The position numbers were made by a program, and so were the translations under genes. 64,000 nt of DNA, from assembly GCA_054600435.1 (NCBI GenBank), contig BAAIJX010000074.1, positions 1 through 64,000 on the forward strand, in the 5' to 3' direction. This document shows positions 1,531 through 20,717 of this stretch, in pieces. This stretch comes from Neophaeotheca triangularis (taxonomy: Eukaryota). The notes under the pieces were generated by a model, which worked only from the letters and a program-made list of their open reading frames with translations, was not told the DNA's origin and did not search any database. Every line of letters starts with the position of its first letter. Position 1 is the stretch's first letter.

Positions 1531-3876
1531 TTAAGAAGCTTGTGTACTACGTCCTTTTCCTACAGTTTTCTTCTTTTTTCCTAGCTATATATTCTTAACA
1601 TTCTTCTTCTTCGGGCTTTATGTTTTCTTTCTACGCTTCTTTTTCGCGCTACCGTAGGTCCGCTAGTATTACTCGAAGTCTACTATCGCTTCTTTCGCGT
1701 TGTTTAGATACTTCTCTTTCTCCTAGGTACCCTCTTCTATCAGCTAATCTTTCTAAAGAACCTAGTACATCTTGTCGCTATCGTCGTCGAGACTAGATAC
1801 CGTTATTTCGTCGATAACCTATTCGCTACCTCTATCGACTTCTCGTTCCGCTAGCGGTATAAAGTCGGCGCGTTAGTAGTACGGTTCGAGGAGAGAGACA
1901 TAGAAGACATTATAGATCTTTCTAAGGTATAGAGGTAGGGCTAATTAGTATACTTGTTTTCCGACCCTTACTATAACTCGAAAGGGCCCTACATAACGCG
2001 AGGAGTACTTTTTAGTTAGTCTTAATGTTTTCAGGTTTTTCGCGGAAATAAGAACCTCGTCGTCGACACTAAATACTATAGGATCGTGTTTTCGGTCGTA
2101 GTATTCCGCCTACTTGCTAACTGCGTGCTAAATGTTCTCCTTAACGACTTCGCGAATTACTTTCTAGTTTTCGGTTCTTTCTTAGAGGTCGGGGATTGTC
2201 GGTTCGCTACCTCCCTCTCTAACGGCGTTATCTATAACGCCGCCGGGCTATTAGGGCTCCGCCCCGTAGATAGTAAAGAACAGCGACACTTTCGTCGATA
2301 CGCTTATACTATTATTATAGGCGAATTTAGCCTATACGAAGTAATAAGGCCAATCTGTTTAAGCAAAGTTAACAAAACATCGTAGATACTGTTCCATTAT
2401 TTAGTTTTGCCTCTCCGTCTATCCGTTAGACTAAGGGTAGTACACTGTCGATAACTTGCGCTCGGTTTTCTAATACCGAAGGAGCTCTATCTAAAATGTA
2501 GAGGTGAATATACTGCCTCTATTAGTTACAATCGATTTCGGCTTACTAAACTTAGTAAGAATTTCGTGCTCGAAAATATCGGCTAGTTAGCGGGCCCCTA
2601 TCGCTTCGCTAATAGGGATATACCTCGCAAACTTTAAGAAGCGGTTAACAATAACTAATACAGAATCGACTGTTTTACCCTTATATGTCTCTACGATAGG
2701 CAACTTAACCACTATGTCTATAGACTAATGCTTAAAGATCTTATTAGTACCCGGAACCCTTAGCGATTATAATGCGCCGTAGGGCCGGTAGTAGCGCGAC
2801 TTGTGTCTTTAGTAGGTGTCACACCTAAGGACATACTCTTCGACATCCTTAGTCTACTTAGACTACTAAAACTCCTTGTGGAAAACGGCTTTAGTCTTCC
2901 CTACTCCCGGGTATCCTACTAATAGGTCCTCGTAGTAGTAGCTTAGCACGGCGGCCCGTAGGCTTTCTACTAGTAGTATATACACCTTTCTATTAATCTT
3001 AAGAAGTCCCGTAAAACTAACCGACTATATAGGCGCGGCGCCGTTAGCGTCTCCGTAGTACTATCCCTCGTCGATCTCTTTACGAATATGTTTAGCAAAG
3101 GGGTCTCCCTACTATATACGTAACATATCCGCTCTAAGGTCAATTCGGTCTACCGCTACGTTAGGCTCTCTAATGTCTAGCTCGGTAATAGTAAGAATAC
3201 CTAGCTACTTACCTATAGGGTTATAATAGATTAGCGCTACTATAGCGACGGAGCTAGTCGGGTTTAGTTCACCTCCCCCTTAGAGCGTTCGCTTAGTATA
3301 CATAGTATCATTACTCTAAAGCTTATTATTTAGAGGACCGGTGTCTCCGGCAGCCATTATATAGCCCGCCGGCGAGGCGGCTAATGCCCGGTAGTTTACT
3401 AGCGCTATATACCCTAGCGATATAGATAGGATCTCTACTCTATCTTCGGCAGCCGTCATGTAGCTACTCGCCGGAACTTCGGCGGCCTTATATTAGCCCG
3501 CTAGGGGAGCGAAAAGCCTAGTTAGTATAGGTAGCATTTCCGCCCTACTTAATTCCCTATTAGCCTCTATGTTAGGACGGCGCGAGAGCCCGTCTGCTCT
3601 AGGGTTTGATTTACCTTTACAGTATATAATCTCGATATCGTATTACGATAGCTCTTCCGCGGCGCGCGCTTAGCGGCCCGACAATTTCTTTGTCGATAGG
3701 AAGTACTTTAGATTGTTATGATCTATAAGCACCTAAACTTTACTCTTAGCCGACAATATATAGTGCCGCTACTAGCGCGTTGCCTCGACGATAGCGAGTA
3801 GTTCCTAATCATGTACTAGATATCGCAACTCTAGCCCTTTAAGCTTCTTAGAGTAATATACGACCGGATACTATAG
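1531..3876 (-). pseudogene. Element A pol, 3' part (RNase H C-terminus, integrase, GPF motif, chromodomain)
   Basis: YYSKKLKG...ELLAIVEA...DHNNLKYF...ADGLSRRP (RNase H), YSSRYVGPFRV (~1975-2010), and chromodomain E*VIDEI...MY*VL*KD*...T*EKEKYLNNAKEAIVDFE (~1670-1830). Confidence 0.9.
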
Positions 3877-4248
3877 TGTCGAGCGGCGAGAGCACTCGAG
3901 TAGCTAGGAGACTAGTTTTTACTTAGAGAGGTATTATTCATAACGGTTATAAACAATGTAGCGGGATTAGGAATTAGGTGTAGTCGAGAATCAGGGATTG
4001 TTCGTAATAGTTACGAACAATGCGTTAGGGGTTAGAAATTAGTTAGGTCGGTTATAGTACACGAAGGCTAATTCAAGTAGTCGCAATTCATTCTATGTCT
4101 ATCTGTCTAGGTAGGTAGGTAAGTAGGTAGGTGTCTAAGATATAAGTGCTAGTATAGGGGGAGGTATAGGTATGTAAAGGGGGTAATGACAAAGCAAATA
4201 CCGTAAAACTAGCCTACCTATAAATGTAGTACGGGAGTCACTACGACA
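3877..4248 (-). repeat. Element B 3' LTR (372 bp)
   Basis: Direct repeat of 16129-16500 with an adjacent PPT; contains (taggt/aggt)n and two 27-bp palindromes. Confidence 0.96.
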
Positions 4249-4269
4249 TCCCTCCCTAGCTAGAAAGTC

Positions 4270-7200
4270 TTACCACTCTATAGCAGCTACGCTACCCTAA
4301 ACCACTATTAAGTTCTCCTTATCCTACATTTCCTCCGTAAGCTCCTCCTATCCTACCGGTATAGCTCCCCTCTTTCCTTTATCCTATAGCGGTAGAGCGG
4401 AGCTAGAACTTTCCGAACGGTAGAACGACTTGTTCTAAAACACCCTTTTCTCTTCGTCTCGCTAATATGTCTAGGCGAGCTCGTACGCCTTAATAGCATT
4501 ATCCCGGATTTCCTAAATGTACTTCCGGATATAACGCGGGCTCTCTATAGTAATAGTATGTAGTACTTACTAGACGTCGGGGCTCGTGTACCGCAATTCG
4601 CCGATAGCTACTCTAGACAAGGCATCCTATACTACTAGATGTAGGGTCGCGGGAAATGGTACACGAGGAGCTCTATACTTAGTAGTGTAACCGGAGGCAC
4701 TTAACGGGCTAGGCACGAAGTCGCGGTATGTAGTAGTAATGTCGCTCCACTTTCTACTAGCGGCATTCTAAAGGTACTTATGGTCTCGGTCGATTCCTAC
4801 GAACTAGGGTAGGACAGTTATACGTTAGCGAACGGCTTTTGACGTAGTAGTGCTATAGGGTAGGCATAGGTTAGAAACGCAAACTCCGAAGGCCTTATAA
4901 GGGACTAGCTACTATTTCAAACCCTAGGCTAAGAGCTAAGCTTTCGGTAGGTTTATGTCGTCGATAGCCATAATCTCTTTTTTATAGTCTAGGTTATTAG
5001 TAACGAGGAAGTCCGTCCACTCCTTTAGGCGTTAGTACATCCCCTTAACCACTATAGTATAGTCGTCCTTAAACTTATTAAGGATGCTAACGCTGCCCTA
5101 AATAGTGTACATACCGGTACCGTTATTCTATATAAACACCGGGTTCAAATCGATATGCCTAAATCTAGTAGAGTCCCTAGGGTACTAGTTCTTAGTGTAA
5201 TATGGGTAGGACACTAGCTAAAGCAAGCCGTTATCGCGTAAGAGAGCATATAGTAGGATTAGTACCGGGCTCTAGCGAAGGTACTATTGAATCAGGCTAT
5301 AGTACATGTTCCTATACTAGCCCCGGTTAGACATGTTGTTTTGTAGGTAGGCGTCGTACATACTAAACTCGCTTTTAATCAGGTCCTTAACCTCTAGTAG
5401 CTTAGGGAATAAATCCGGAATGTTAATAGTACCGTTCCTTTCCTATTCTTTACGCTAGGCGACCGTGATGCCGAGTCCTTCCGCAATCCTCGCTTTCTAG
5501 TTATTGTCGAGGTAGTATATCACGCCGGACTTAACCGGTTTATACGCGAAAGTCTCTAGGTCATTAACGTCGGCCGAGATCCCTAGTAGGCGTTAGACTT
5601 CGGTGTTTAGAAACCAGCGGATACTACTACGAACGACGTTTTTCTAGGATTGCTTTAGGAGTTTCGCGATGTAGAAGATGTAGTCGTTAGTCGTCTTCGC
5701 ATCTTTCCCTTAGATAACTAGCCTAAGACTCTACGCTACTAGTCTCCGGTAGGTCGCGCACATACTATAGTAGTAGGTACTATAGCTAGTACATAACTCT
5801 ATGCGATCCCTATCTTCTATAGTAATGCGGAAACTAGTTCGCTAGTCGTTATCGGCTCTAAGCATGACCCGTAACTATAGTAGGGCTATCTTGTCTACCT
5901 CATAAGTGTATCGGCCGCCGCGTAGACTACCGTATACGGCATTGCTAGCAAACTAGGCCTCTATGACTACTTAGATCTCCTCTAGCTTCGGAGAGGGTAA
6001 CTCGCTAAGCCGGGGTCCTCGTACTACTTACGTTAGGGCCGTACCCGGGGGCGTAGCTAACATGCCCGGGGACGGAGCTAACGTTCCTACACTAGCAGAC
6101 CGGGTATAAGTGCGAGTACGAAGGGCTAAGGTAGTAGACATAGGCGTAGGCAAGGGCTACATTAGCTAGTAATACCCCTAGAGCTAGCGACGAAGCTCCT
6201 CCGACGTAGACACTAGAGATACTACATCCTCCTTAATTATAGGCATTAGTAGCATACTAGTGTTTCGAGATCGCGGCTGTCCTATAGGGCTCGGGGAGAC
6301 GGTGCTAACGAAGCGCCCTTCTCGTCATAGGGTCTCTAGGGCTTTAGGTGTCGTTAGGGCTATAGGACGGGTAAGGAAAGAGAGCTAGCCATCCTGTCCT
6401 CGGTATAGGACGCGATCATTCGGGCGCATCTTTTTGTATTTTTCGATTAGTTCCCCTACTATGTCCTATAGCTCGTCGGTAGTCTACTTAGTCGCAAACT
6501 TAGATATCTAGTCTATACCTACCGCGTAATTAAAGTCGGCCTTAGTGTAGAAGAACGTATAGAGTGGTTTCCCTTTCCTACTAGTCGGTTAACCTATAGG
6601 AGTTTCCTTGACAAGCCTACGCATAAGCTAGATACTAGCGGTAGCACGTAGCTTCCGGAACGTCTACTTAGATGTCTAGGCATATTTAGCGAGGTCGACA
6701 AATCCCTAGGACACATTCTCTAGAGCTATAAAGATACGGTCAATAGTTTCTAAAGCGACGGCTTTAGCAGCATTAACTAGCCCGTATAAAGAGAGGAAGT
6801 TCTCCTTTCGAGTAATACGCGGGTCGCGACGGCTACAGGTAGCTATGTCTTTAACCTTCCTAAACTTAGCTCTTTTTAGGGCCTACATAGGGTCGCTTCG
6901 CGCGTAGTTATCTACTATGTATACTAACATGTCCTAGTCTTCGCCGGCTTTATATACTATCTTAAGTATAGCGAGCTACGTAGCGTCTCGGGCGCGTAGG
7001 TCGGTTATAGCAGTTATCTTTTACAGTATCTCCTTCATAGTGTTTTTAAGCCGTATACTAGAAAAGCTTAAGGTGTATCGCTACGTGTCGAGTATAGGAG
7101 CTCCCTAGTCGTTAGTTGCTCCCTAGTTTTAGTAGACGCTCGTATCGGTAGACCTCGCTATTATAGTGGTGTCGGGCGTAGGCGCGGTTATAGTTATAGG

Positions 7201-7353
7201 CGCAGCCGAGGCAGTAGTAGGGCATGTAGTAGCCTAGCTACTACGAGTAAGGCGAGGGCTTTTAGGAGCTACTAGTTTATTCGAACTACCTAATCCGGAG
7301 CCGGCTTAGGAACTCGCCCGTAGGTGCTTCGGAGTAGACTCCTTAGGTACTAT
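4270..7353 (-). pseudogene. Element B ORF3: ~1027-aa protein with a C-terminal PhyH-like Fe(II)/2-oxoglutarate dioxygenase domain
   Basis: RIPed start (ATA at 7353), His codon at 5157 and TAA at 4272-4270 share one frame. Motifs: LVSYPYYTK..GDSTRFRHIDLNP..I*GSVSIL(D)..DDYTIVVKGMY..LP(Y<-H)(S<-G)..R*RITVLP*FVG, i.e. HxD...H...R. Confidence 0.8.
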
Positions 7354-7832
7354 GGTTAGTAATCTTAATCTTAACTATAGAAAAGAGAGAAAGAGAGAGA
7401 TGTGAAAGTAAGGAGAAGAAGGAAAGTAGAGTTAGTTACTCGGTATGTTACTAAGATGTGTCGGTGTCGGTATTAGTGTTAAAGTGAAAAGGTGTCGGCA
7501 AAGTCGTAGGTTTAGGAGAATGTGAAGTAAGGAAGTAGGTATAGGCACTAAAGGACGGAGGTGTCGGAGTAGTAGGTACTAGAGATATCGACTAGGTTAA
7601 AGAGGTCGTAAAGGTCGGAGGGAGTAGCTGCTTTAAGGCTTATCTAGAAGTAAAGCTGAACTACTCGAAGGTTCTCGTAGTAGTGCTAATAACAGCTAGT
7701 TAGCCGGGTGTAGTATAGTTAGTGTTAATGATGTCTCGGTGTGAGAAAGAGAAGAAGGAGTAGTAGTAGTAGTAGTGGTTGCTATTAGAGAGGGAGGAGA
7801 GGTAGAGGGAGTAGAGCGGAAGAGGAGGCCTC

Positions 7833-7839
7833 TTTTATA
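7833..7839 (-). promoter_or_regulatory. Candidate TATA box (TATAAAA) of ORF3
   Basis: Followed on the minus strand by pyrimidine-rich tracts typical of fungal 5' leaders; ~480 bp upstream of the ORF3 start. Confidence 0.5.
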
Positions 7840-7970
7840 GGTAGCTATGTTAGCTAGCGGAGCACGTGTCGACTACGTGTTACTAACTTAAGCACTAGTG
7901 ATACGAGTAGTGACTATACGTTGTTAGCCGACATGTAGCATGTAACACTAAAGTGTTATAGAGGTAAAGG

Positions 7971-8217
7971 CATTGTTTACAACGGTTGCGAACAATGTAA
8001 CGAGCTTAGCGTGTATTACTAAGGCGTCATAAGGTAACGGGTGACATTGTTTATAACGGATATGAACAATATAATATAGCTACGGCAAATAACACTACAC
8101 TATTAGGTAATAGGAGGCATTATTTATAACAGTTATGAACAATGCGACGAGCCTCGTCTATACTACTAGGAGTCGCGGTGTCGGGCCTAGCATTATTCAT
8201 AACAGTTACGAACAATG
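7971..8217. repeat. Array of four 27-bp palindromes (consensus CATTGTTCRYAAC-N-GTTRYGAACAATG) with 46-47-bp spacers
   Basis: Copies start at 7971, 8045, 8118 and 8191 (periods 74, 73, 73). Confidence 0.9.
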
Positions 8218-11200
8218 TAGTAACACTAATCTCTATTAGAATCTAGGTCCCTAAATTGCTCGTACTCTATCGGGTCGTACCGAATACTAGGAATCGAGAC
8301 GAAACCAGTACTACTCCGTCTCGGTACTAGCGTAGTATCGGTAGGTTATAACCGCTAGCTCCTACGAGGCCCTTCCTATACAGCCGGGACGATATCCTTA
8401 GGGTTAGACGCGTTACCCCTAGACATCGAGTACTACTCTTCCGCTAGGTCTACGTCGTCTTCGTCTTATATCGCGAGTACATTAGGCCTTAGATAGAACA
8501 GTTTTAATAGTCGACTAGCATGTAGCTTATCTAGTACTGTCCCGTTAAGCTCCTTAAGACGGTACGAGTCTATATTCTCCTAGACGGTTTTAATACGATA
8601 CGGACCGAGCTAGCGAGGGGCGAATTTGCGGTTTGCCGTTATATTAGTATTACGAACCGAGTCGAATAGTAACACTAGATCACCGACATTTAACTCCTCT
8701 AGCCTCGTCTAATGAGTCTTATCGAAGTACTCCTTGTTAAACTCGCGGTAGCGCTATAAGCGTAGAAGGGCTTCGTCTATCTTCTTATCCTAACGTTCGA
8801 GCTACTTTATCCGCGCTACTAGTAGGTCTTCCGTCGTTTAAACGCCGTTCTAGTTAATGTTGTGCTAGGTCGGGAATAACAACTCTACCGGTAGGATAGG
8901 CTCCCTACTATAGATTACTACTACTAGAGTTATACTAGTAGTAGCTCGTACGGTAGTCCTATTAGCCTAGAGCGCGCTATAGAGTAGGTCTGGCCACGGT
9001 CGTCCGGTATCTCGACTCGCTTTAGCTAACGTATTAACGATAGTCGGGTAGCCTCCTTCTACTATACTATTAGCTTAGGGGTAATACGGCGAGATCGTGA
9101 TGTCTTAGATACCGTATCCTTCGAGTAGGACGGTAGTCTACCCTTAGTTCTCTAGGCCTCTATCGTGGACTAGTTTCCCGAATACTCCGTGTCGAGTAAC
9201 GATATCCTCGTAAAGGAAGCGAGCTAGCCCGCGGCTCTCGGTGTTACGTAGTGGTCGGCCTTCTACCTAGCCGGACACGTCTTCCCGGGTAAGGGTAATG
9301 TACTAGAAAGTACGGGATTCCGGCATTCGTACTAGGTCGACGGCCTACTTCCTACCTACTACGTTTATGTAGGTAGGGTGTAGTGGTTCTTCTAATTGGT
9401 TCCGTGCGCGTAGCTAACACTCCCGGCAGGTTTTGACATACGCTGTAACAGTATTATATATACCTTCCTACTAGTACCTGTCTACTACTTTCCGGTATGT
9501 CCCTTCTCTTCCGTAGTAACTACCCTTATCGTGAAGTTCCTTTATTATTCGTAGTCGGTTCTACTCTCCGTCTACTACGCGAGTTAATAGCTAGTTCCTA
9601 TTTATATAGCGAAATAGTTAGTCGTTATAGACTAGGAATCGCATTGCTTGTCGCTTAAATGCCCGGAACTCCGATTTAGATAGGTCTACGGGCCTTCGTA
9701 TAGTCGTGAGCTAGCGGGCGACATTTTACGAGTGCTTAGAGTAGGTAGAGTCGAGCACATTATCGTCGGCAGGTTCCCCCTCCCTATTAGAAGGAGTCGA
9801 AGCTCCGTCTTCGCCGCTCGCGGGCGTTAGGCCCTATACTAGGAGTAACCCTACTATATAGGTAGATCTTCGATTCTCGCCGACTATAGGCGTTAGGCCT
9901 AGTGTCGGGGGCAGCCCTAACGCTAAGGTCGGCGGTCTCTTTCTACTAATAGTAGGCGTTAGGCCTAGTTCTAGGGGTAGCCCTAACGAAATGCTGTCGA
10001 GATAGACGTTAACCTAGTTATCGATGTCTTTAGTATTAGCCGGCCCATTAGACTTCCGGGACAGGCCGTTAGCGATAACGTTTTTCGTACTAGCGACGTG
10101 TCGCACGTCGAAATCAAATAGTTAAATCTAAGCTAGCTAGCGAGTTACTATAGTATTCGGTACGTCCGAGGCAACCTTATTAAGCTAGGCAACTAGCGTA
10201 TTAGCGTCTGTTTCGACTATAAACCTCGCTCCGTAAAGGTATAGCCGTAACCTTTTAAGAGCGATCATTAAAGCCTAGTACTCGAGCTTAACAGCATCGT
10301 ATTTCTGCTCGCTCTTATTCTAGAGACCGCTATCGTACCGGATAACTCGTCTTTTTACGCTAGCGACTTCTTATTATAAGTAAAGTCCCTAGCCGGTACT
10401 ACATATATCGACCATAAGAACTAGTTAGCCTATGTTTACGCCGTATTTAACTAGGGCCACGATCGGGAATTTCATTAGCTACTCTTTTAGGTCCGCTATT
10501 ACCGCGGCTTATTTCGGTCCCTAGATAAAGGGCATATCTTTCCATATAAGTGTAATAATAGGTCTCGCACGCTATATAAATCCCTAGATCAACTACTTAT
10601 AGTACGTACACATTCTAATAAAGCCACGAGCTTTACGCAATGTGCGACACTTAGTCTACTCGGCGATAGCTTTAACCTTTAAACGCGATAGTTTCGTACT
10701 ATTAGGCATGTACATAAAGCCGACAACCTTAAGCTCCTCGGAAAGGAAGTGCGATTTCCCTATAGCGACAGTACATCTAGCTCGCTCTATGTCTACGAGC
10801 AGCTAGTCTAGTTTCCGGATATAGTTATAGACCGGGAGCCGGATACCGGGTAAAGGGTTAGGGTCGCCCTAGGAGTCACTACGGTTACTAATAGCGATAA
10901 TGTCGTCAACGTACGGGACGGCGTTATGTAGATATAGCACCATGAGTATCTACATTATGACTCGACAAAAGATAGCTACTAAGTTTGTCTAGCCTATTAG
11001 TAGTATTGTCTGCCTTAGGAGCCCTAATAGAGTCATGATAGCCGTCATGTCCCGGCTTTCTTCGTGTAAACGGATTTCGTCATACCTAGAGAAGACGTTA
11101 TATAGCGAGAGGAGCGGTCTACCCGTAACATGATAGACGAAGCTCGCGAGGTCTAGTAGCATTATAGCGTCTCGAACTATAACCGAATTCAGAATAGTAG

Positions 11201-11893
11201 CCGAGTTAATTAGCCTATGTTTGCTATTCTTCTTTTTAACTAGAAACTAAGGATTCCGGTATTGCCCTTAGCTATACTTAAGGACACTAGCTTTTAGTCG
11301 GTCTTCTAACATCTCGACGAGCTCCCTAGATAAAGCTTTTAGCACGGGATATGTCTTGGCCTACTAGGCTTTATAGGGTACCGTTCTTATCTTAACCGGA
11401 GGGCATATGTCTTTATAGATCATGCCATACTCCTTAAAGTCCTACATAAGGGCCGGCTTACGGGCTATTAATATCGCTTCGAATAGCTAACGTTCTTCTA
11501 GTAAGAGCGTGATGTTAACTATTACTCCCGCTATTCGTTCTAGGGTTAATCTATAGCCCCTTAGCTCCCGTGTATATCGCGGTTCGAAGTAGCTATTATA
11601 CTCGGAGTAAGCGATAAGATCTTTTAGCATGCTTTTAATCTAGCGCTCTATAGCTTTCTTTCGCTAATCTAACTGTCTACTAGGAATCTTAGAGGGGATA
11701 GCACTTAAGTCGTCGATAGGCACTACCTTATCTACCTTCCGTTTAGCTATAGTCATAACACCGCAATTCTCCTTTAGCGGTAAGGTAGGGTTAGAGGCGA
11801 GCGCTATAAGTTCTAAAGGTTTTACACTCTACGAGAGCTTTATACTATCTACTATTATGCTTAACCTCTATACGTAGGAGACCCTACCTAGGG

Positions 11894-12070
11894 CATTGTT
11901 CGTAGCGGTTACGAATAATGCTCGGGTACTAGTCGAGGAGTTAGCGGAGCGTCCGGGTATTACGTGACTAGAGGGATTATTCGTAGTAGTTGCGAACAAT
12001 ACTCGGGTCATCGTAGTGTTATCGGTCGCTTCGTGAAAGGCAGGATTGTTCGTAGTAGTTATGAACAATG
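11894..12070. repeat. Three in-frame copies of the same 27-bp palindrome between protease and RT
   Basis: Starts at 11894, 11975 and 12044 (periods 81 and 69, both multiples of 3). Read as LFxTxTNN repeats in ORF 11868..12068. Confidence 0.88.
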
Positions 12071-12709
12071 ATTTGCTTAGTTCTTAGTAGGTATCGGCGG
12101 TAGTAATCGAACCTACTTGTCCGCCCTACCTTTTAACGAATGAATAGAGGACGCGCTCCGATCTACACGTACCGTATACATACCGACACCATTAAGGGAG
12201 AAATGGTCTCTAGCCTTAGAATCTAAGCCCACTAGTCGACGAATCCCTATACTAGGAATAAAGTCTATAGTCGCCGAGCTATCCTCGCTAGTGACCTGGC
12301 AGGTAACTTTGCCTAACGGATTCCTCCGAACTTCGAGGGAAGCGCGATAGGCATATAGCTCTCCGAGGATATAGGGTTTCGATAACTACTCTACTACTAG
12401 TATTAGTATGCGAATGACGACCTAGCCGACCTAAACGGGCGCGTTAGGAACCTACCTAATAAAGATGACTACATCTCCGTTTACTACTGTAATACCCGGA
12501 CTAATAGAAGATGGCAACCTCGTAATTAGTAGTCGAGCGCGTTTAGCCACGTCTCTTATCATGACATTAATATCCGTGCTAGAGTCGAGGAGTATAGTTA
12601 CGTTAGTCTTCCCGATCCTTATCTCGTAGACTAGGGAGTCGTTACGATAAACTAGGTCCTCTCCCATAAGATCGTCGACGTCACGGGCGGTTATATAGAA
12701 CAACGTAGT

Positions 12710-13409
12710 TATAAGAACTGTGCGTATCACGTGATGTCTAATCCTTATGCACTAACTAGTTCGCTACAAAGTGCAAAAGACTAGGAATATTTACCTCCGT
12801 AGTGAATATCGACATCATACCTATATAGGCTTGAGTCTTGGCGTCACGTGACGTCGTACGTGACCCACAAACTTAGTCGTGACAATTGCTTCCCTCTCCG
12901 TCGGACTCGTCCTCAAGTCTTACGACTTCATGACTCATGTCGGCCTTCCCCGTTACATATATATAGTCATACATGACTTATGCCGGATAAGATCCTAGCA
13001 CGTAATCATAGAGGTTGTCACACCTACATAGACCGCCCCTATCACTACACACGTGTGTCTACGTGATCACGAGCACGTGATCTACACATGAGGACTTCCG
13101 TCACGTGACGCATCACGTGACGTACTACCCTAAGTGATGTCGTACCTTAAAGTCACGACCCCGCACGAAACGTCAAGCAGCTTTCTACACGATTCGAACG
13201 GGCGACCTTTAGGCACCGGTAGAGGTGAATATATTGTGAGAACTATGCGTATCACGTGATGTCTAATCCTCGTGCACTAACCAGTTCGCCACAAAGTGTA
13301 AAAGACTAGGAATATTTACCTCCGTGGTGAATATCGACATCATACCTATATAGGCTTGAGTCTTGGCGTCACGTGACGTCGCACGTGACCTACAAACTCA
13401 GTCGTGACA
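12710..13409 (-). mobile_element. TRIM (miniature non-autonomous LTR element C): 175-bp LTRs and a 350-bp non-coding interior
   Basis: Direct repeats 12710-12884 and 13235-13409. 5-bp TSD gtagt (12705-12709 and 13410-13414). PPT ggagagggaagcaat on the minus strand next to the left LTR. Confidence 0.95.
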
Positions 13410-16128
13410 GTAGTGTTTAATGCGGTAGCATTCCGTCGACGCCTATCGACCGAATCATGAGCTGTAGTTATAGCGGGTAACACGGAAGCACCTCTAGCGG
13501 TAGACTTCTTCGTTTCGCGGGCAAGGTGCCGTTACGTAGCGGTCATGTCTATTTCTCGCTACACATCGTCAGCTAGCCCCTCGGGTAGCGGGCTAAATAG
13601 TAGCTTCTAGACACCTAGCATCTTTACTAAGACGTCTATATAGTTTATGGTAACATCGCTACTAAGGAGTATCTCTAGTATCGTAGCATTATCATACTGA
13701 TTTCGGATAAGGACATCGAGGAGCTTCGCACGTCTCGAGGCCTACTATTTTGTCGCTAGTAGCGCCGGCTGTTACTAATCTTCGTCATTAGTATCCCTTT
13801 CCTCGACTAGTCGATTAATTAGCGAGTCGTAGGGAATAGTCTAGCTTCTCTTATAAGCCGCGCTGTCTACTAGCTTCTCGTACTTACTAGGCCTCGTCAC
13901 GCGGACTTTAGGAGCAGCTCGCTTCTTATACACTCTCGCGTCCGGATCTTAAACCGGCCCTAGGCTAGATCGAGTCTGCATTAGATATAAAGAGACGTCG
14001 TCCTTGTCCTCGGAGGTGTTAGAACGGGATAATAGAGGGAGTGTAGTCATAAAGCGAACTATAGGACCCTATGCGGCGATAGGCACGAACCGGTTCTCGC
14101 CCCGTTTAATCTTCTACTTAATAGTATCGAGCCGGTTTTCCTACGGAAGCCTTTAGAGTTCCTCTCCCGGGTTTTAAACAGATCCCTATCAGATACGTTT
14201 ACTACTTAGGTTAGAGTGTACGAGTCCCTTATTAATAAGCTCGAGAAATCTAGGGCAAGTCATCTATCCGTGTAGGCCGCTATACATGAAGTAGCCTCCC
14301 GGCGCCGTTCCGTAGGTAGTATTAGGAGCGCCATAACCCTAACTAGGATACTACATGTAGTTATTAAAATTAGAGGTAGTAGCGGTAGGGGCGTAAGTAG
14401 ACCGTTCGGGAAAGGAAGGTTATAGAGCTACCTAGAAGACATTAGTCGTAGCGCTAGCTAGAATGTTAGACATAGTAAATCCGTAGTAGCCCGTATTCTT
14501 AACTATAATAGCTAGGTCTATAGCGTTTAACTTAAGCGTCTTGAACTTAGCTACTAGTTCGTCTATTTCCTTTTCGGAGGTAGGCTATTTAGGGAAGTTA
14601 GGTATAGGACGTCCCTAGCTCCTAAAAGCTAGCGCTAGGAATGCCGCGGTAGGGACTAGCATATATACGACAGGTTTCTCGCTAGCCTCTATATAGACTA
14701 TTACGTTATGAACCGAATTCAACATCTCTAAGGATTAGTCAGCACGGACCTTGTCCTCGACGGCCCTAAACAGTTATTAGTACTCGATAGACTCGCTAGG
14801 CATAAGTGGATTAATCTAGAACTGCCGGATAAGACGCTCCTATAAGTTCTAAGGCAAACTATAGAGGAAGTACTTTATAATCTCCGGTCCCCTAAGAGGG
14901 TACCCCTAATCTTTAGCCTTATAGATAATGCTCTCGAAACCGCGAACGTACTCTAGGATCCTATTCGGATAGCTAGCGGCTTTACTCTTAGCCATAAAAC
15001 CCGCGAGTGCTTCTATACTTCTAGTAAGTCGCTCCGAGTCAAAATCCCTAAACTTAACCTTTATGGCAGCGAAGACGCCCGCTAACGAGCCGTCGTGCTC
15101 AAGGTCCGACACCTAGGCCTAGACCTTATCGCTAACGTAGCTATCGAGTAGTTCGGCTACGCGACGGGAGTCGAACCTAAACCGCACGCATATCTTCTTA
15201 TACTTCTATATAAAGCTCGTAAGGTTACTACTATCGAAGTAGGCCGCTCTAGACTTGTAGGGGCTCGGGGGAGGCGCCGTAATCACGTACCCTAGGGTAT
15301 TAGTAGGACGCGACGGTAGGGACGCCCTAGGGCTGTCCCCGCTAGATCCTAGGGTAAGCGCGGGGGTAGATAGTGCCGAGGAAGTAGTAGGCCCTATATC
15401 CTATATGTCTTCTAGGGTAAGGGAAACGTCGAGAGGGGAGTTAGACATATTTTTGGTTATTTGTTCAGTTTTCTAGAAACAGTGATAATAGTAAGGCGGC
15501 GTAAATAAAACAGTAGAATCTTAGAACATATAAGTAATAGACCGAGTAAGGAAGCCGAGAATGTAAGCGATGTTCTTAGTAGTAAATTTACGAAGTTAAT
15601 CTTAAGCGGTGCCTCGTAGTCTTTCTTCGATCTATAGCCGAGTTGATATCTTTTCTCTACTAGAGGTCCTAAAGGTCCGGATTCTCTAGTAGTATGTAGA
15701 AGGTTTGCCTCTATTAAAATAAGACGAGCGTCGTCGTAGGGGACTCCGGCCTCTACATTTTTAAAGCTCTATTAAGTTTTCGGCGATAATACCGAACAGT
15801 CTAAAACCTTACGTAGCGTAGACAACCGCATCTAGGCTAAGTAGAACGGTAAGGGCGAGAAAAGCTAAAGTAGTAAGTAGTAGTCTAGACTATCTAGAAG
15901 CCGCTATCGTCGTTTCGTTAGGACAGGAGAATAGCGGGGTAGAGTAGTAGGTTTCTTAGGGTTAACTATAGCGCCGCTATCGCGTTATCGAGTCCCTTTT
16001 CTAGTTCCCTTATTAAAAGGGTAAGTTCTATAAGCTAGGTAGTCTTGTAGTAGGTATAATTCCTAGAGCGTAGGTTCGGCTATTAGGACGAAGACAATAT
16101 GCGATCGCCCTACCTTCGGCTCTAAATA

Positions 16129-16500
16129 TGTCGAGCGGCGAGAGCACTCGAGTAGCCGGGAGACTAGTTTTTGCTCGGAGAGGTATTGTTCATAACGGTT
16201 ATGAATAATGTAGCGGGATTAGGAATTAGGTGTAGTCGAGAATTAGGGATTGTTCGTAACGGTTACGAATAATACGTCGGGGGTTAGAAATTAGTTAGGT
16301 CGGTCATAGTACACGAAGGCCAATTCAAGCAGTCGTAATTCATTCCATGTCTATCTGTCTAGGTAGGTAGGTAGGTAGGTAGGTGTCTAAGATATAAGTA
16401 CTAGTGTAGGGGGAGGTATAGGTATGTGAAGGGGGTAATGATAAAGCAAATACTACAAAACTAGCCCGCCCATAAATGTAGCACGGGAGTCACCACGACA
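16129..16500 (-). repeat. Element B 5' LTR (372 bp)
   Basis: Direct repeat of 3877-4248, with palindromes at 16184 and 16248. Confidence 0.96.
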
Positions 16501-16504
16501 ATAG

Positions 16505-19297
16505 CGTGCCCGAGTACTTCTACGCGAGTATACCTCCTAATGCATATCCCGATATATTGGTCTTAAGGCAGGTCTCTAGCGTAGCGTTAAAGTGCCGTAG
16601 TACTAGTGCTGAAATGAAGCTGTACTTTAACCTTTTAAAGGATTTTTAGGCATCTTTACCTAGTAGCTACTATTCACCGCCGCTATACCGTAGGCGGTCT
16701 ATAAGGGGAGCGGTAATCTTTATATATCCCTTAATAAAGCGATGATAGAAATTCGCGAATCCTAGGAACACTTAGAGTTCTTTTAGGGACTTTAGTATTA
16801 GCTAATCTTGTACTACGGCTACCTATAGGGGCTCTATCGCTACTCTAGTAGAGTTAATAACGAAACCGAGGAATCCAATTTCTCGGACTATGAACTCGTA
16901 TTTCTCGAGACTAGTATATAGCTTAGCGTCGGCGAGCTAACGGCAGACCGCTCGAACGTGTTCGTGGTGTTCTACTTTAGTATAGGAATAGATAAGAACG
17001 TTATCTATGTATACTACGTAGTAGTAGTTAACGAGTTCTATGAGCACCTTATTAATAAAGGCCTAAAACGACGCTAGTACATTAGCGAGTCTAAAAGGCA
17101 TAACCTTATATTGAAAATGGCCGTACTAATAGTAGAACGCCGTCTTCTACTCGTCGCCCCGGGCAATACGTAAACGGTAGTATGTCTCGACTAAATCGAT
17201 TTTCGAAAAGCACATTAATCTACGGACTCTATCTAAGAGTTCACTAATAAGTAGTAAAGGATGCTTATTCTTAATAGTGATTTCGTTTAAGCCTTAGTAA
17301 TCGACGTACATTCGGAGTTTGCCGTTTTTCTTCTTAACGAACAGTAATGGTACGCTAGCGGGGCTAGTACTAGGCTCGATACGGTCTGTCGCGAGCAGGT
17401 TATTAATCTACGACTACATTTCCTCGAGCTCTAGCTCGGAACATAGGTAGATCAGTCTACTAGGAGGATTTTTCCCCTCGACTAGTTCGACATAGTAGTT
17501 ATAAAGCGTATACGGAGGTAACTCTTTCGCCTTCTCTAATTTAAACACCTCGGCGTATTCTGCTAACTACTCGGGCACCTATAGCTCCGCTAGGGCCCTA
17601 TATAAGTCTTCTACGCTAACGGCGAGGATAGATGCTCTACTGTTAATATCTCGGGCTAGTTCTTCGGCCTCGATAATTTCGACTTCTTCTTTATTATACA
17701 TGCCGCCGTAGCGCTACTATACTAGTAGCGACGCGAAATCAAGCTATACTTTCGCGGATCGGATCTAAGGCATTCTAAGAATCATTTCGTAATCCTTCTA
17801 GTTCACTACTTCGAACATTTACAGGATAGTCTAAACTATACTGTCTAAATTAGCGACTTTAGTATAGAGTCGGCATCGGCCTACTATTAGGGCTTCGATG
17901 TCGCTAAAGGCTCGTAGCCTACGAATCTAGTCACCCTTTATCGGCAGGTTATACTAGACCGCGATGTCTTCCGAGATGACATTGTAATACGCTCCTATAT
18001 CGATAAGCCTACGGGCCTCGAAGCGTAGCCCGTCGCGGGTACGATTGTATATCTTCGCGACAGCCTATAGGCGCTCTATTAATACACTGCCTACTTACTG
18101 CCCTAAGCCTTTAAGGCTAATAATTAAATGACCTAGGGCTAAGCTTTTCCCTTTCGGCAATGTTCTTACTAGTAGCCTTTATTGCTATACTTAAAACAAA
18201 GGTTTTCCTCGAGGGCTTTGTTATTTCGTTCGCTACCGTTAGTCGTACCTATATAGTTTACACCGGTCGCCGGTGTTCTATTAGTGCGCTAGTAGCGCGG
18301 TTTAGAGTTGTTATCGCTTATACTCTAGTTTTATTCTCTTTTCCTATAGCCGGAACCTCTTAAGTCGGTCTTATATAGCTTGTCTGCCGTCTCGCCTCTA
18401 GCGTCCTAGCTACTATAGCTCGCATCGTCGAGGCGCGTATAAAGCGCGACGAGGTCGTAGCGGTTATCCGGCACCGTTAGCTAGGCATTTAGCTTAGCCT
18501 TAAGATTCTCCCGTAAACCTGTCTTAACGAGGGTTAGGAGCGTATACTCCGGTAGCGGGGCGACGTTAGCCTCGCGGAGGGAGTCTTCGACATATAAGAG
18601 GTAGTCGTGAAATAGATTAGGTTAGTCCCTACACGTGTCGGAAACCTCGAAACGCCATGTTTATAGCGCGGTTTTCAGGGTCGAGGATCTAATCTAGTAG
18701 CTATTCTTTAAACATAGGCCATTTCATCTCTTCGCGTTCGAGTCGTAATTCTTTACTCTCCTAGTTCTAGCCGACGCGGCTATATAGGCGGCCTACGGCA
18801 TACTAGACACGCTCGTACTAATAAAAGTAAACATAAGGGTACGTCTTAAACACACGCTCGCATTACTAGATAAACGTCTATGCTTTTAGGAGATTAGGAT
18901 AACTCCTATAAACCGTTAGTTCGGCCGAGCGAAAAGCTTTCTTAATATCGATATAAGACTTTCGCTCCTTTATCGTTACGCTAGTAGGTAGATCTTCGTC
19001 TACTGTCTACTTACGTGCTACTAGGGTAGGGGCAATGTCCGCTAGCTCCTCCGGTTCGATATGTCCTCTTTCGGACTCGTCGTATAGGACCGTCGCTCTA
19101 TTAGCGGCTCGCTAAATAGGCGCTATACGCTCTACTAATTACTATCGGAGTTCCGTAATAGCGGTAGTAAGGACCGTGTATTAGTCCGTCGCTACCTCTT
19201 CTTATTCTTATAGGGTATTAACTCCGGTCATAGTGTTAGGGGAGTCCGCTAGGTTAGCGTCGTTAACCCGAGGGCGTAGCGAGCGCGATAGTACTAT
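16505..19297 (-). pseudogene. Element A gag-pol, 5' part (gag, zinc knuckle, protease, RT, start of RNase H)
   Basis: RIPed ATG ~19297; ENLCFKYSNKGY*..HC knuckle ~18156-18210; LIDIGAYYNVISE (DTG-type protease) ~17970-18015; RT VVYIDNVLIYS ~16985-17017. Confidence 0.9.
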
Positions 19298-19346
19298 AAT
19301 ATCTAAGCGAATCTTAACCTAAGAAGGTTCTAAGATCGAATAGAAT

Positions 19347-19569
19347 TATAAGACCGAGACTATAACTCGGTTAGGATCACGGTAGAGCGAGGGCGGAGCG
19401 TAATAATAGTAATAATAGTAATAGTCCTTTAATATAGAAACTATTCGATAGTAGATAGGAGACTTCACTATTAGCTATCTTATATACTTTCGTAGTATAT
19501 ACGCTTAGCACTCCCGAGCTACTCTATAGCTTAGGCCGCTAATGTCCTACTAGCGCCGCGGTCGTGACA
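19347..19569 (-). repeat. Element A 5' LTR (223 bp)
   Basis: Begins tgtcacgacc on the minus strand; followed by a self-priming-type PBS (ctattcgat) and gag. Confidence 0.92.
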
Positions 19570-20717
19570 CTTTAGTTACCTAGCCCCACTATAATTCAAT
19601 ACGCTAGTTTTACTTACTAGTACTATACCGGAAATAGTCCTTAAAGCCTAGGGGTTCGCCATTAGGTCCTAGCCTTAATTGCTCTACGATCTAGTAGTAA
19701 GCGTCTACTATTATAGTAGTCTTACCCCCCCTATCGGTAGTAATGATTTCCGGAGCGATACCTATCTCCGAGACGGTCTTAAGGTATTATACTGTAACTA
19801 AAACCCCTATACGGCTAGATATGCCGCAATAGATCTACATAATCTTATGTGAATATATGTCTATAGCGCTATAGACCTAGATCCCCTATAACTCGAGCTT
19901 ATAATAGACATCTATAGACTAGATATAATTAGGACTAGGATAGTTAACGGCGCTACGTATATAGCGCAGTATTAGGTCCCTACGAGTTATAGCCTATCTA
20001 CTATTTACGGGCCTTGTCCGAACTCTATCTCGTCTAAACTTTATGCTAAGACTAGCAAGATTTCTTTAAGGGCGCTCTATTAGAGTTTACGAGGCTTACA
20101 TTACGCGAGAATCACTATAGACTCTTAGGCTAATAACTCCTTTAGGACTCGACTTTAGAAGATCGTAAAACAGCTTAATCTAGCGGTATTCGAGCGCTGT
20201 AGTCGTACTAAAGACTCGCTTACCTATCTACTATGTTGTACTTAGACCGCATCTTTTAGTATAGGTAGCCTATTCTAAGGTCCTTAATAGAGCCGTCCTC
20301 ATACTCCTAGGTTAATACTACATATATAGTAGTCTCTATTTCCTACTCTTTAACTATCCCTCTCTTAATTCGCTTTTTTAGACCTATCTCTTTATGTAGC
20401 TCTACGATTTTGTAGCTACTAATGTCCGCTAGGCCGTTAGCTAGCAAAATCTGCGCGATTTGCTCGTCCATGATAAGGTGTTCTATGAATATATAGGCGA
20501 GTCTCGCGCGAAGTATAGGTCTGTTAAACACACTAGTATTGCGGTGCTATACTACTACCCCCTAGTCATAGAGCGACTCGCAAAGGCGCGTAAGGCCTAC
20601 CTTGCAATCGTGGTTGTCTCGTAGGTAAGTAATAATATCTTACTGTCTAACCTTGTCGCGCGTAAGAGCCTCGATGTCATCCCTAAAAGGCTCGAGGTTG
20701 ACCTTATAGCGAGTCAT
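19570..20717 (-). mobile_element. RIPed IS3EU-like DDE transposase (Clr5-like N-terminus + integrase core), cut by element A
   Basis: MTRYKVNLEPFRDDIEAL... start; core YPSPNYI*SIDVYYKLEL*GI*VYSAIDIYSHKIM*IYCGISSR...TDRGGKT...N*RIEL*WG, ending exactly at the element A LTR. Confidence 0.75.

Follow-up and report, generated by a model that had tools for sequence, protein, structure and literature searches.

A predicted PhyH-clan dioxygenase as the third gene of Gypsy retrotransposons, with links to Helitrons, in Pezizomycotina

Introduction

Why would a fungal retrotransposon carry a large third gene, and what does that gene encode? The question is raised by a stretch of 64,000 nucleotides from Neophaeotheca triangularis (NCBI GenBank assembly GCA_054600435.1, contig BAAIJX010000074.1, positions 1 to 64,000; hereafter the window). 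Near its start lies a degraded Ty3/Gypsy retrotransposon, here called element B, in which an earlier note made from the letters alone had described a 1027-codon frame at 4270..7353, between pol and the 3´ long terminal repeat (LTR). The C-terminal third of this open reading frame (ORF3) was read as an Fe(II)/2-oxoglutarate (2OG) dioxygenase domain and interpreted as element-encoded cargo, possibly directed against host silencing. That interpretation is largely supported by the analysis presented here.

Transposon-borne 2OG dioxygenases point to a silencing mark that the element must fight, as two known cases illustrate. TET/JBP dioxygenases are found in 11 lineages of fungal DNA transposons, including Kyakuja-Dileera-Zisupton, Plavaka, EnSpm, hAT, Helitron and others, where they are thought to counter methylation; the 2025 survey behind this count found no retrotransposon with a TET/JBP gene (PMC12730594). 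In the second case, Ty3/Gypsy elements of Phalaenopsis orchids carry an extra ORF for an AlkB-type N6-methyladenosine RNA demethylase, which is described as recently acquired by a single lineage of elements 25 kb long and whose activity was shown in vitro (PMC9289625).

The gene in the window belongs to a different dioxygenase family, found in fungal Gypsy elements and linked to Helitrons too, constrained at the level of pol and with hundreds of homologs in Pezizomycotina. A search of the full-text literature, with subscription journals and Repbase entries outside its range, found no account of fungal LTR retrotransposons or Helitrons with an oxygenase of PhyH-like or DUF1479-like type, and passages in two papers, on Botrytis (PMC8365987) and Rhynchosporium (PMC5118889), proved unrelated. 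The family appears to be undescribed.

A degraded copy with a recognizable C-terminal half

The frame exists on the minus strand. Read 7353→4270, it comprises 1028 codons with 63 in-frame stops (50 TAG, 12 TAA, 1 TGA), and the motifs quoted in the earlier note are all found there: RHIDLN at 5160, GSVSIL at 5097 and VVKGM at 5052. A plus-strand reading of the same interval was rejected, none of its three frames containing these motifs. The position corresponds to that of env, as had been noted; the frame follows pol (integrase 9755→8448) on the same strand and ends 22 nt before the 3´ LTR.

Stop codons are of little help in deciding whether the frame is a gene. It had been described as broken only by stops of the kind produced by repeat-induced point mutation (RIP). 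The stops are indeed mostly TAG and TAA and the region is RIP-like (TpA/ApT 2.34 and (CpA+TpG)/(ApC+GpT) 0.35, where gene-rich sequence of the window has 0.74 and 1.16), but they are hardly rarer than in two other frames of 4270..7353, which hold 65 and 68, nearly all TAG or TAA. On stop count alone the ORF3 frame is no better than chance, and stop density was dropped as coding evidence.

Homology provides the evidence instead. A phmmer search with the X-masked window frame against 1.84 billion representative sequences returned 430 matches at E≤1e-3, of which 228 reach ≤1e-10 and 41 reach ≤1e-30; the strongest has E 1.1e-43, and all best stretches are confined to query residues ~505-1014. A family profile of 846 positions, built from 76 homologs with the window row left out, matches 5817→4375 (481 codons; profile positions 356-834) at E 9e-89 and has no other match in any of the six frames, whether over 3800-8600 or over the window in full. 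It is because of these profile and phmmer matches, and not the stop count, that ORF3 is considered real in the window copy.

These results bear on the alternative that ORF3 is a one-off capture of a host gene by this copy, or a chance frame in RIP-mutated DNA. The stop counts (63 versus 65 and 68), the unmatched N-terminal half and the failure of Pfam to match the window frame at E≤1 all speak for it. Against it stand the profile match, which runs in a single frame, and the 23 related loci in which the gene lies between a pol of the same type and an LTR. Moreover, the stops of the window copy align to W or Q of homologs in pairwise alignments, and 15 of the 18 near-invariant columns that are changed in this copy differ by single C>T or G>A transitions of RIP type. 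The alternative is already refuted for the C-terminal 481 codons, and overall we give it next to no weight.

The verified part of ORF3 in the window thus spans 4375..5817 on the minus strand and comprises a helical CxxH module followed by the dioxygenase domain. The copy retains H733 and D735 of the HxD motif and R844, and its distal His-Gly reads Tyr833-Ser834. Because the distal iron-binding His is replaced by Tyr833, the window copy is a dead, RIP-inactivated and non-functional relic.

Upstream, the 1027-codon extent proposed earlier did not find support. The N-terminal ~510 codons (7353→5818) have no match to the family profile in any frame, even with filters off and at E≤10. Most other copies, RIP-degraded ones included, match profile positions ~17-837 in one frame. 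The distance from integrase to the verified domain is ~2.6 kb in element B versus ~1.8 kb in the intact element at a related locus, L001 (see below). Given the missing N-terminal match and this longer distance, the upstream half of ORF3 in the window is probably either very divergent or rearranged. The segment 5818..7353 is putative and is assigned to ORF3 by analogy only, an intact ORF3 starting ~450 nt after pol.

A dioxygenase fold behind an uncharacterized family

The homologs are uncharacterised Pezizomycotina proteins of ~800–1000 aa. Named entries are all ‘hypothetical’, ‘uncharacterized’ or automatically labelled PhyH, and come from Xylona, Venustampulla, Sclerotinia borealis, Coleophoma, Rhinocladiella, Coccidioides, Penicillium and several lichen fungi. 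The iron-binding motif seen in the window is borne out by two alignments, one of 62 and one of 77 sequences: in the order HxD...HG...R the Asp is invariant and the His, the His-Gly and the Arg are conserved at ≥90%. By its position, the conserved Arg (R208 in protein P0012, R713 in L001 ORF3, R844 in the window copy) would be the ligand of the 2OG C5-carboxylate. Upstream of HxD, the same alignments contain near-invariant CxC and CxxH motifs. The possible Cys cluster pointed out earlier at 5756-5793 turns out to be the CxxH motif, represented in the window copy by C532 and Y535.

Sequence profiles give a faint family label. PhyH (PF05721) is the only Pfam family found, in four of 16 homologs scanned (E 1e-3 to 8.8e-7), three of them above its cut-off of 22 bits and one below; L001 ORF3, at 17.1 bits, also falls below, and some database entries for homologs carry PF05721 or its name. 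Among the 16 homologs there was no match to the Tet_JBP or AlkB families, and none to DUF1479 at E≤0.01.

Structure is more informative and was predicted for intact homologs, not for the decayed copy in the window. For one such homolog, of 347 aa, AlphaFold2 gives a double-stranded beta-helix with a mean predicted local distance difference test score (pLDDT) of 95.2. Foldseek against the PDB retrieved DUF1479/YbiU/Gig2, EvdMO1/EvdO1, TlxI, GriE, EctD, AusE and FtmOx1 (E 9e-7 to 3e-4, template modelling score ~0.4-0.55). VIA-align, run against 48,161 chains and effectively covering L001 ORF3 residues 487-795, placed YbiU first (Z 21.2 over 273 residues, root-mean-square deviation 3.0), then Gig2 (Z 19.6 over 281 residues, 3.6), both leading other folds by four to six Z units. 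Other members of the PhyH clan follow at Z 13-15, among them human PHYH at 13.7, and prolyl hydroxylases at 10-11; NgTET1 scores 8.3, and ALKBH3, AlkB and ALKBH6 score 8.0-8.4.

Taken with the conserved motifs, the models identify the C-terminal domain of ORF3 as a predicted PhyH-clan Fe(II)/2OG dioxygenase with a fold closest to DUF1479, upholding the earlier PhyH-class assignment. Structurally, nothing matches the catalytic domain better than the DUF1479 proteins YbiU (4rgk, 2csg, 2dbn) and Candida albicans Gig2 (6akz). At the level of sequence no relationship was detected: with a profile made from 62 family members, a search of all PDB sequences gave nothing below E 0.29. Furthermore, DUF1479 proteins are single-domain, cellular and ~400-450 aa long, whereas the transposon protein has ~500 extra N-terminal residues. 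With PhyH (PF05721) the family shares the HxD...H...R pattern and the fold, although most members, the window copy included, remain below the Pfam threshold. The PhyH label implies no link to phytanoyl-CoA metabolism.

The full-length model of L001 ORF3 (950 aa; mean pLDDT 78, residues 352-860 above 90) has a helical domain at 15-205, a disordered segment at 211-351 and a block at 352-860, in which a helical CxC...CxxH module precedes the double-stranded beta-helix. The module is possibly a zinc site; an ESM Atlas look-up with residues 340-500 gave no usable match for it. We hold the identity and architecture of ORF3, as described here, with high confidence. One homolog of 1289 aa (P0114) has a Ulp1-type Peptidase_C48 domain (1121-1225) after the oxygenase domain; proteases of this type occur often in proteins of transposons.

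The comparison with TET/JBP and AlkB made in the earlier note holds for the lifestyle and fails for the family. Like the TET/JBP genes of transposons, ORF3 encodes a predicted Fe(II)/2OG enzyme with an HxD...H triad, resides inside fungal transposons and is linked to more than one class of them, Helitrons included, and lends itself to a proposal of escape from silencing. Its fold, unlike theirs, is of the PhyH clan and DUF1479-like (Z 21, against 8.3 for NgTET1, and no Tet_JBP match in Pfam). The evidence leans against membership in the TET/JBP family or in AlkB, which is also carried by plant viruses. The resemblance to the orchid elements lies in an LTR retrotransposon with a fixed additional 2OG dioxygenase ORF that is read in terms of conflict between host and element; the orchid case is plant, AlkB and recent, whereas ORF3 is fungal, PhyH/DUF1479-like and part of an old association.

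The gene as a part of Gypsy retrotransposons

A scan of metagenome contigs, with an alignment of eight sequences as query, provided 80 loci out of 362 confirmed relatives. Their flanks were searched by tblastn with the RNaseH-integrase of the window’s own pol. An upstream flank of 4 kb or more is available for 41 loci, and in 25 of these a Gypsy pol of the window type lies on the same strand and precedes the C-terminal domain, mostly by 1.5-2.1 kb (range 0.7-2.8 kb). In 23 of 27 pol-linked loci, pol and the gene lie together between direct repeats of 127-357 bp, which delimit elements of ~10.5 kb; the remaining four have too little flank, upstream in three and downstream in L049.

The element at L001 is intact and has an ORF1 for gag-protease, an ORF2 for reverse transcriptase (RT)-RNaseH-integrase and an ORF3 of 950 aa, and the visible parts of its LTRs are identical. 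Intact three-ORF elements are also present at L002 and L049, and in circularly permuted form at L042. The other pol-linked copies are degenerate, with a GC content of 0.36-0.46. At L042 the ends (1-167 and 10054-10220) are 99.4% identical and the ~10-kb element reads as ORF3 C-part, one LTR region, a gag-pol ORF at 1918-8421 and ORF3 N-part; the permutation reflects either a circle with one LTR or the collapse of both LTRs into one during assembly. Fusions of pol and ORF3 were absent among proteins of 1639-4680 aa, which is weak evidence.

Selection on ORF3 was estimated from L001 and L002, where the ratio of nonsynonymous to synonymous substitution rates (dN/dS) is 0.083 for ORF3 (dS 0.33), 0.086 for pol and 0.197 for gag. 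Between L001 and L049, identity of the ORF3 proteins is as low as 27%, and because of this divergence the association of ORF3 with Gypsy elements is considered old. As far as substitution patterns and gene order can tell, these comparisons show ORF3 to be an integral, conserved part of the Gypsy element, selected as strongly as pol. The Gypsy lineage of Pezizomycotina to which element B is assigned has gag-protease, RT-RNaseH-integrase and a third gene of ~850-1220 codons between its LTRs.

Four metatranscriptome runs belonging to two studies contain contigs, 90-95% like L001, that extend over pol, ORF3 and the LTR. A 7,988-nt contig, ~93% like L001, reaches from 3963 to 11727 and then into the LTR, and so from pol through ORF3. 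These contigs are compatible with transcription of a related ORF3-bearing element. Splicing was considered as a means to express ORF3 and rejected: two skips (146 and 178 nt) in the pol-ORF3 spacer are without GT..AG ends and were taken as length variants, and no intron-like joint was seen in the contigs, which cannot show transcript ends. The spacer itself attracts short RNA-library contigs of far higher depth at L001 8292-8584 (in run X12, 222.8 in bin 8254-8646 versus ~5 elsewhere in L001), and several runs show loose contig ends there, at 8492/8527 and 8581. The spacer contains a perfect inverted repeat at ~8542-8565 and has no match in Rfam.

The same gene family beside Helitron genes

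Flanks of loci lacking pol were scanned against Pfam. In five loci the gene adjoins Helitron Rep/helicase (RepHel) ORFs (DUF6570, Helitron_like_N, PIF1), which are divergent at L024, convergent and 0.2-0.5 kb off at L034 and L036, and upstream on the same strand at L051 and L076. The last two have the order of RepHel then oxygenase in common and are ~80% identical at the nucleotide level; between them dN/dS is 0.108 for the oxygenase (dS 0.82) and 0.147 for RepHel (dS 0.75). In this diverged pair, the oxygenase appears to have co-evolved with its adjacent Helitron.

How often the gene changed hands was addressed with a quick maximum-likelihood tree of 398 C-terminal columns and 71 rows. Gypsy-borne genes form one large clade and occupy three further places (L018, L022, L049), Helitron-linked genes form two clades, and parsimony counts seven changes among the three known contexts. 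The window copy, on a branch of length 2.7, cannot be placed. The tree scatters the Gypsy-borne genes, but by the approximately unbiased (AU) test their union in one clade is not significantly worse (p 0.224), and for this reason one or several acquisitions by Gypsy elements are both compatible with the data.

Other neighbours were recorded in the flanks: a Plavaka transposase at L061 and an rva_4 integrase fragment at L008. Two pol-less loci have in common an upstream same-strand ORF of ~1280 aa without Pfam domain (L006 3128-6991 and L012 1376-5212; 24% identity over 448 aa, E 2e-20), which could be a partner gene or belong to an unrecognised element type. At L011 (12380-14495) and L046 (5213-6628), two related loci with 59% identity, an SNF2-related helicase gene lies downstream of the oxygenase on the opposite strand.

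What the enzyme may do for transposons

The linkage to both classes bears directly on function. One possibility is that the enzyme serves the replication of the element itself, by hydroxylating Gag, integrase or a host cofactor and thereby promoting particle assembly, nuclear entry or integration. This would agree with a constraint on ORF3 equal to that on pol, with the occurrence of both on one RNA-library contig, with the large non-catalytic domains and 140-residue disordered linker typical of protein-protein adaptors, and with the protein hydroxylases PHD2 and OGFOD1/Tpa1 among structural matches (Z 9-11). The family is also linked to Helitrons, however, which are without Gag, reverse transcription and integrase, and this makes a partner specific to retrotransposition unlikely; in addition, some members are found away from any pol. 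A role in replication is in our view improbable.

One enzyme family is thus kept by two classes of transposon. Because Gypsy elements and Helitrons have no transposition chemistry in common, escape from host control is likelier than a role in replication, and the enzyme would most likely act outside transposition, on something to which every transposon in these fungi is exposed. It could weaken silencing by oxidatively hydroxylating or demethylating a host target, or a nucleic-acid or chromatin target; candidate targets are RIP and DNA methylation, heterochromatin and RNA-based control. As an overall explanation we favour, with some reservation, an accessory Fe(II)/2OG oxygenase of Gypsy elements, linked to Helitrons as well, that helps mobile elements by acting outside transposition itself. 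Counter-silencing specifically is put forward more tentatively, as a possibility that we would not yet call probable.

Several observations weigh against this explanation. In 16 of the 41 loci with enough flank there is no Gypsy pol, and most of these genes are intact; at L047, at least, a short oxygenase fragment lies among ordinary host genes. For these reasons host or domesticated copies may exist, and intact copies do exist away from transposon genes. The Gypsy sample is narrow, since 21 of 27 pol-linked loci come from one metagenome and one degenerate family, leaving independent Gypsy examples from ~8 samples, and dN/dS for the Gypsy elements comes from a single pair. Orientation relative to RepHel differs among the three Helitron groups. 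Helitrons capture genes readily and, given this habit and the variable orientation, some of the adjacencies may be incidental. The RNA-library contigs are also compatible with DNA carry-over, and the N-terminal ~510 codons of the window copy have no tblastn match to any of the 80 related loci.

The structural neighbours do not favour a silencing target either. YbiU and Gig2, the closest folds, are without established substrate, and the PhyH-clan matches of VIA-align with an assigned substrate are all small-molecule enzymes, none known to act on nucleic acids or histones; a chain of an RNA-editing complex (8fnc, Z 14.7) is an exception without assigned substrate. PHD2, OGFOD1/Tpa1 and P4H-EF-Tu (Z 9-11) act on protein, and the folds of AlkB and TET reach only Z 8.3.

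This pattern fits an alternative in which the gene is passenger cargo that acts on a small molecule, is beneficial or neutral to the host, and is spread by transposons, including through capture by Helitrons, which are known for it. Its PhyH-clan neighbours with known substrate (EctD, GriE, AusE, FtmOx1, EvdO1, PHYH) are of this kind, and the 10 kb around many intact copies are free of transposon genes. Gypsy elements that differ down to 27% identity in ORF3 keep the gene in one position and under pol-like constraint, which would not be expected of a passenger; a metabolic PhyH enzyme would not usually have ~500 non-catalytic residues that include a conserved CxC...CxxH module, and neighbouring biosynthetic genes were not seen in 11 scanned loci. 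We consider passenger cargo unlikely.

A broader version of the silencing explanation can be formulated. According to this, an unnamed large DUF1479/PhyH-like family of Pezizomycotina would be an accessory gene of LTR retrotransposons and Helitrons that counters silencing by oxidising a mark or component of genome defence, such as cytosine methylation/RIP, heterochromatin or RNA modification; as part of the same reading, it would be to retrotransposons what TET/JBP genes are to fungal DNA transposons, with another enzyme scaffold. Both parts are speculative, and we think each of them rather doubtful in this general form. The substrate, if found, could reveal an unrecognised silencing or modification pathway in filamentous fungi, and would give DUF1479-like enzymes their first biological context.

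Element B and its surroundings in the window

The host of ORF3 in the window reads, at 3877-16500 on the minus strand, as a 12.6-kb Ty3/Gypsy LTR retrotransposon killed by RIP. Its LTRs were found by blastn self-comparison. The 3´ LTR at 3877..4248 (372 bp) is 91% identical to the 5´ LTR at 16129..16500, whose ends were read from the sequence; both are on the minus strand, with ends TGTCG...CGACA of the TG...CA type. A candidate target-site duplication, ATAG, at 3873..3876 and again at 16501-16504 is weak, being only 4 bp. Abutting the 3´ LTR is a candidate polypurine tract, AGGGAGGGA on the minus strand (4249..4257), its function being suggested by sequence and position.

The internal regions were located with tblastn using the L001 proteins, and follow on the minus strand in the order gag, protease, RT-RNaseH, integrase and ORF3. 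A gag-like region is at 14144..15289 (ORF1 aa 170-561, E 6e-9) and the aspartic protease region at 12251..12694 (ORF1 aa 802-952, E 6e-11; this part of L001 ORF1 carries Pfam Asp_protease_2). RT and RNase H are at 9969..11759 (ORF2 aa 26-631, E 9e-106; Pfam RT_RNaseH 6e-13) and integrase at 8448..9755 (ORF2 aa 630-1061, E 5e-88; Pfam Integrase_H2C2 3.2e-10).

Two further stretches of element B deserve mention. A 171-bp direct repeat of 94% identity, in copies 525 bp apart (12714-12884 and 13239-13409), lies between gag and protease and may account for part of the extra length of the element, 12.6 kb versus ~10.5 kb in relatives. The ~1.1 kb at 7354-8447, from the end of integrase to the start of the frame as originally drawn, matches nothing; its translation has repeated short motifs (VMNNV, YEQC) that are also present in the translation of the LTR, which suggests LTR-like or repeat-derived sequence.

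Element B is inserted within the RNase H region of a second, different Gypsy element, element A, which is RIP-degraded too. RT and the first half of RNase H of element A are at 19201→16514, and what remains of RNase H, together with integrase and the C-terminal part, at ~3870→~1300, all on the minus strand; element A has no match to the ORF3 family. Its remains are flanked by a 227-bp repeat of 92% identity (1104-1330 and 19346-19572) in inverted orientation, unlike the LTRs of a single element.

Both elements lie in the first 21 kb of the window, which hold no long ORFs and are RIP-like throughout as compared to the sequence beyond (GC ~0.44 versus ~0.53, TpA/ApT ~2 versus 0.74, (CpA+TpG)/(ApC+GpT) ~0.35 versus 1.16). 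At ~21000 this RIP-mutated transposon island switches abruptly to gene-like DNA with normal dinucleotide indices.

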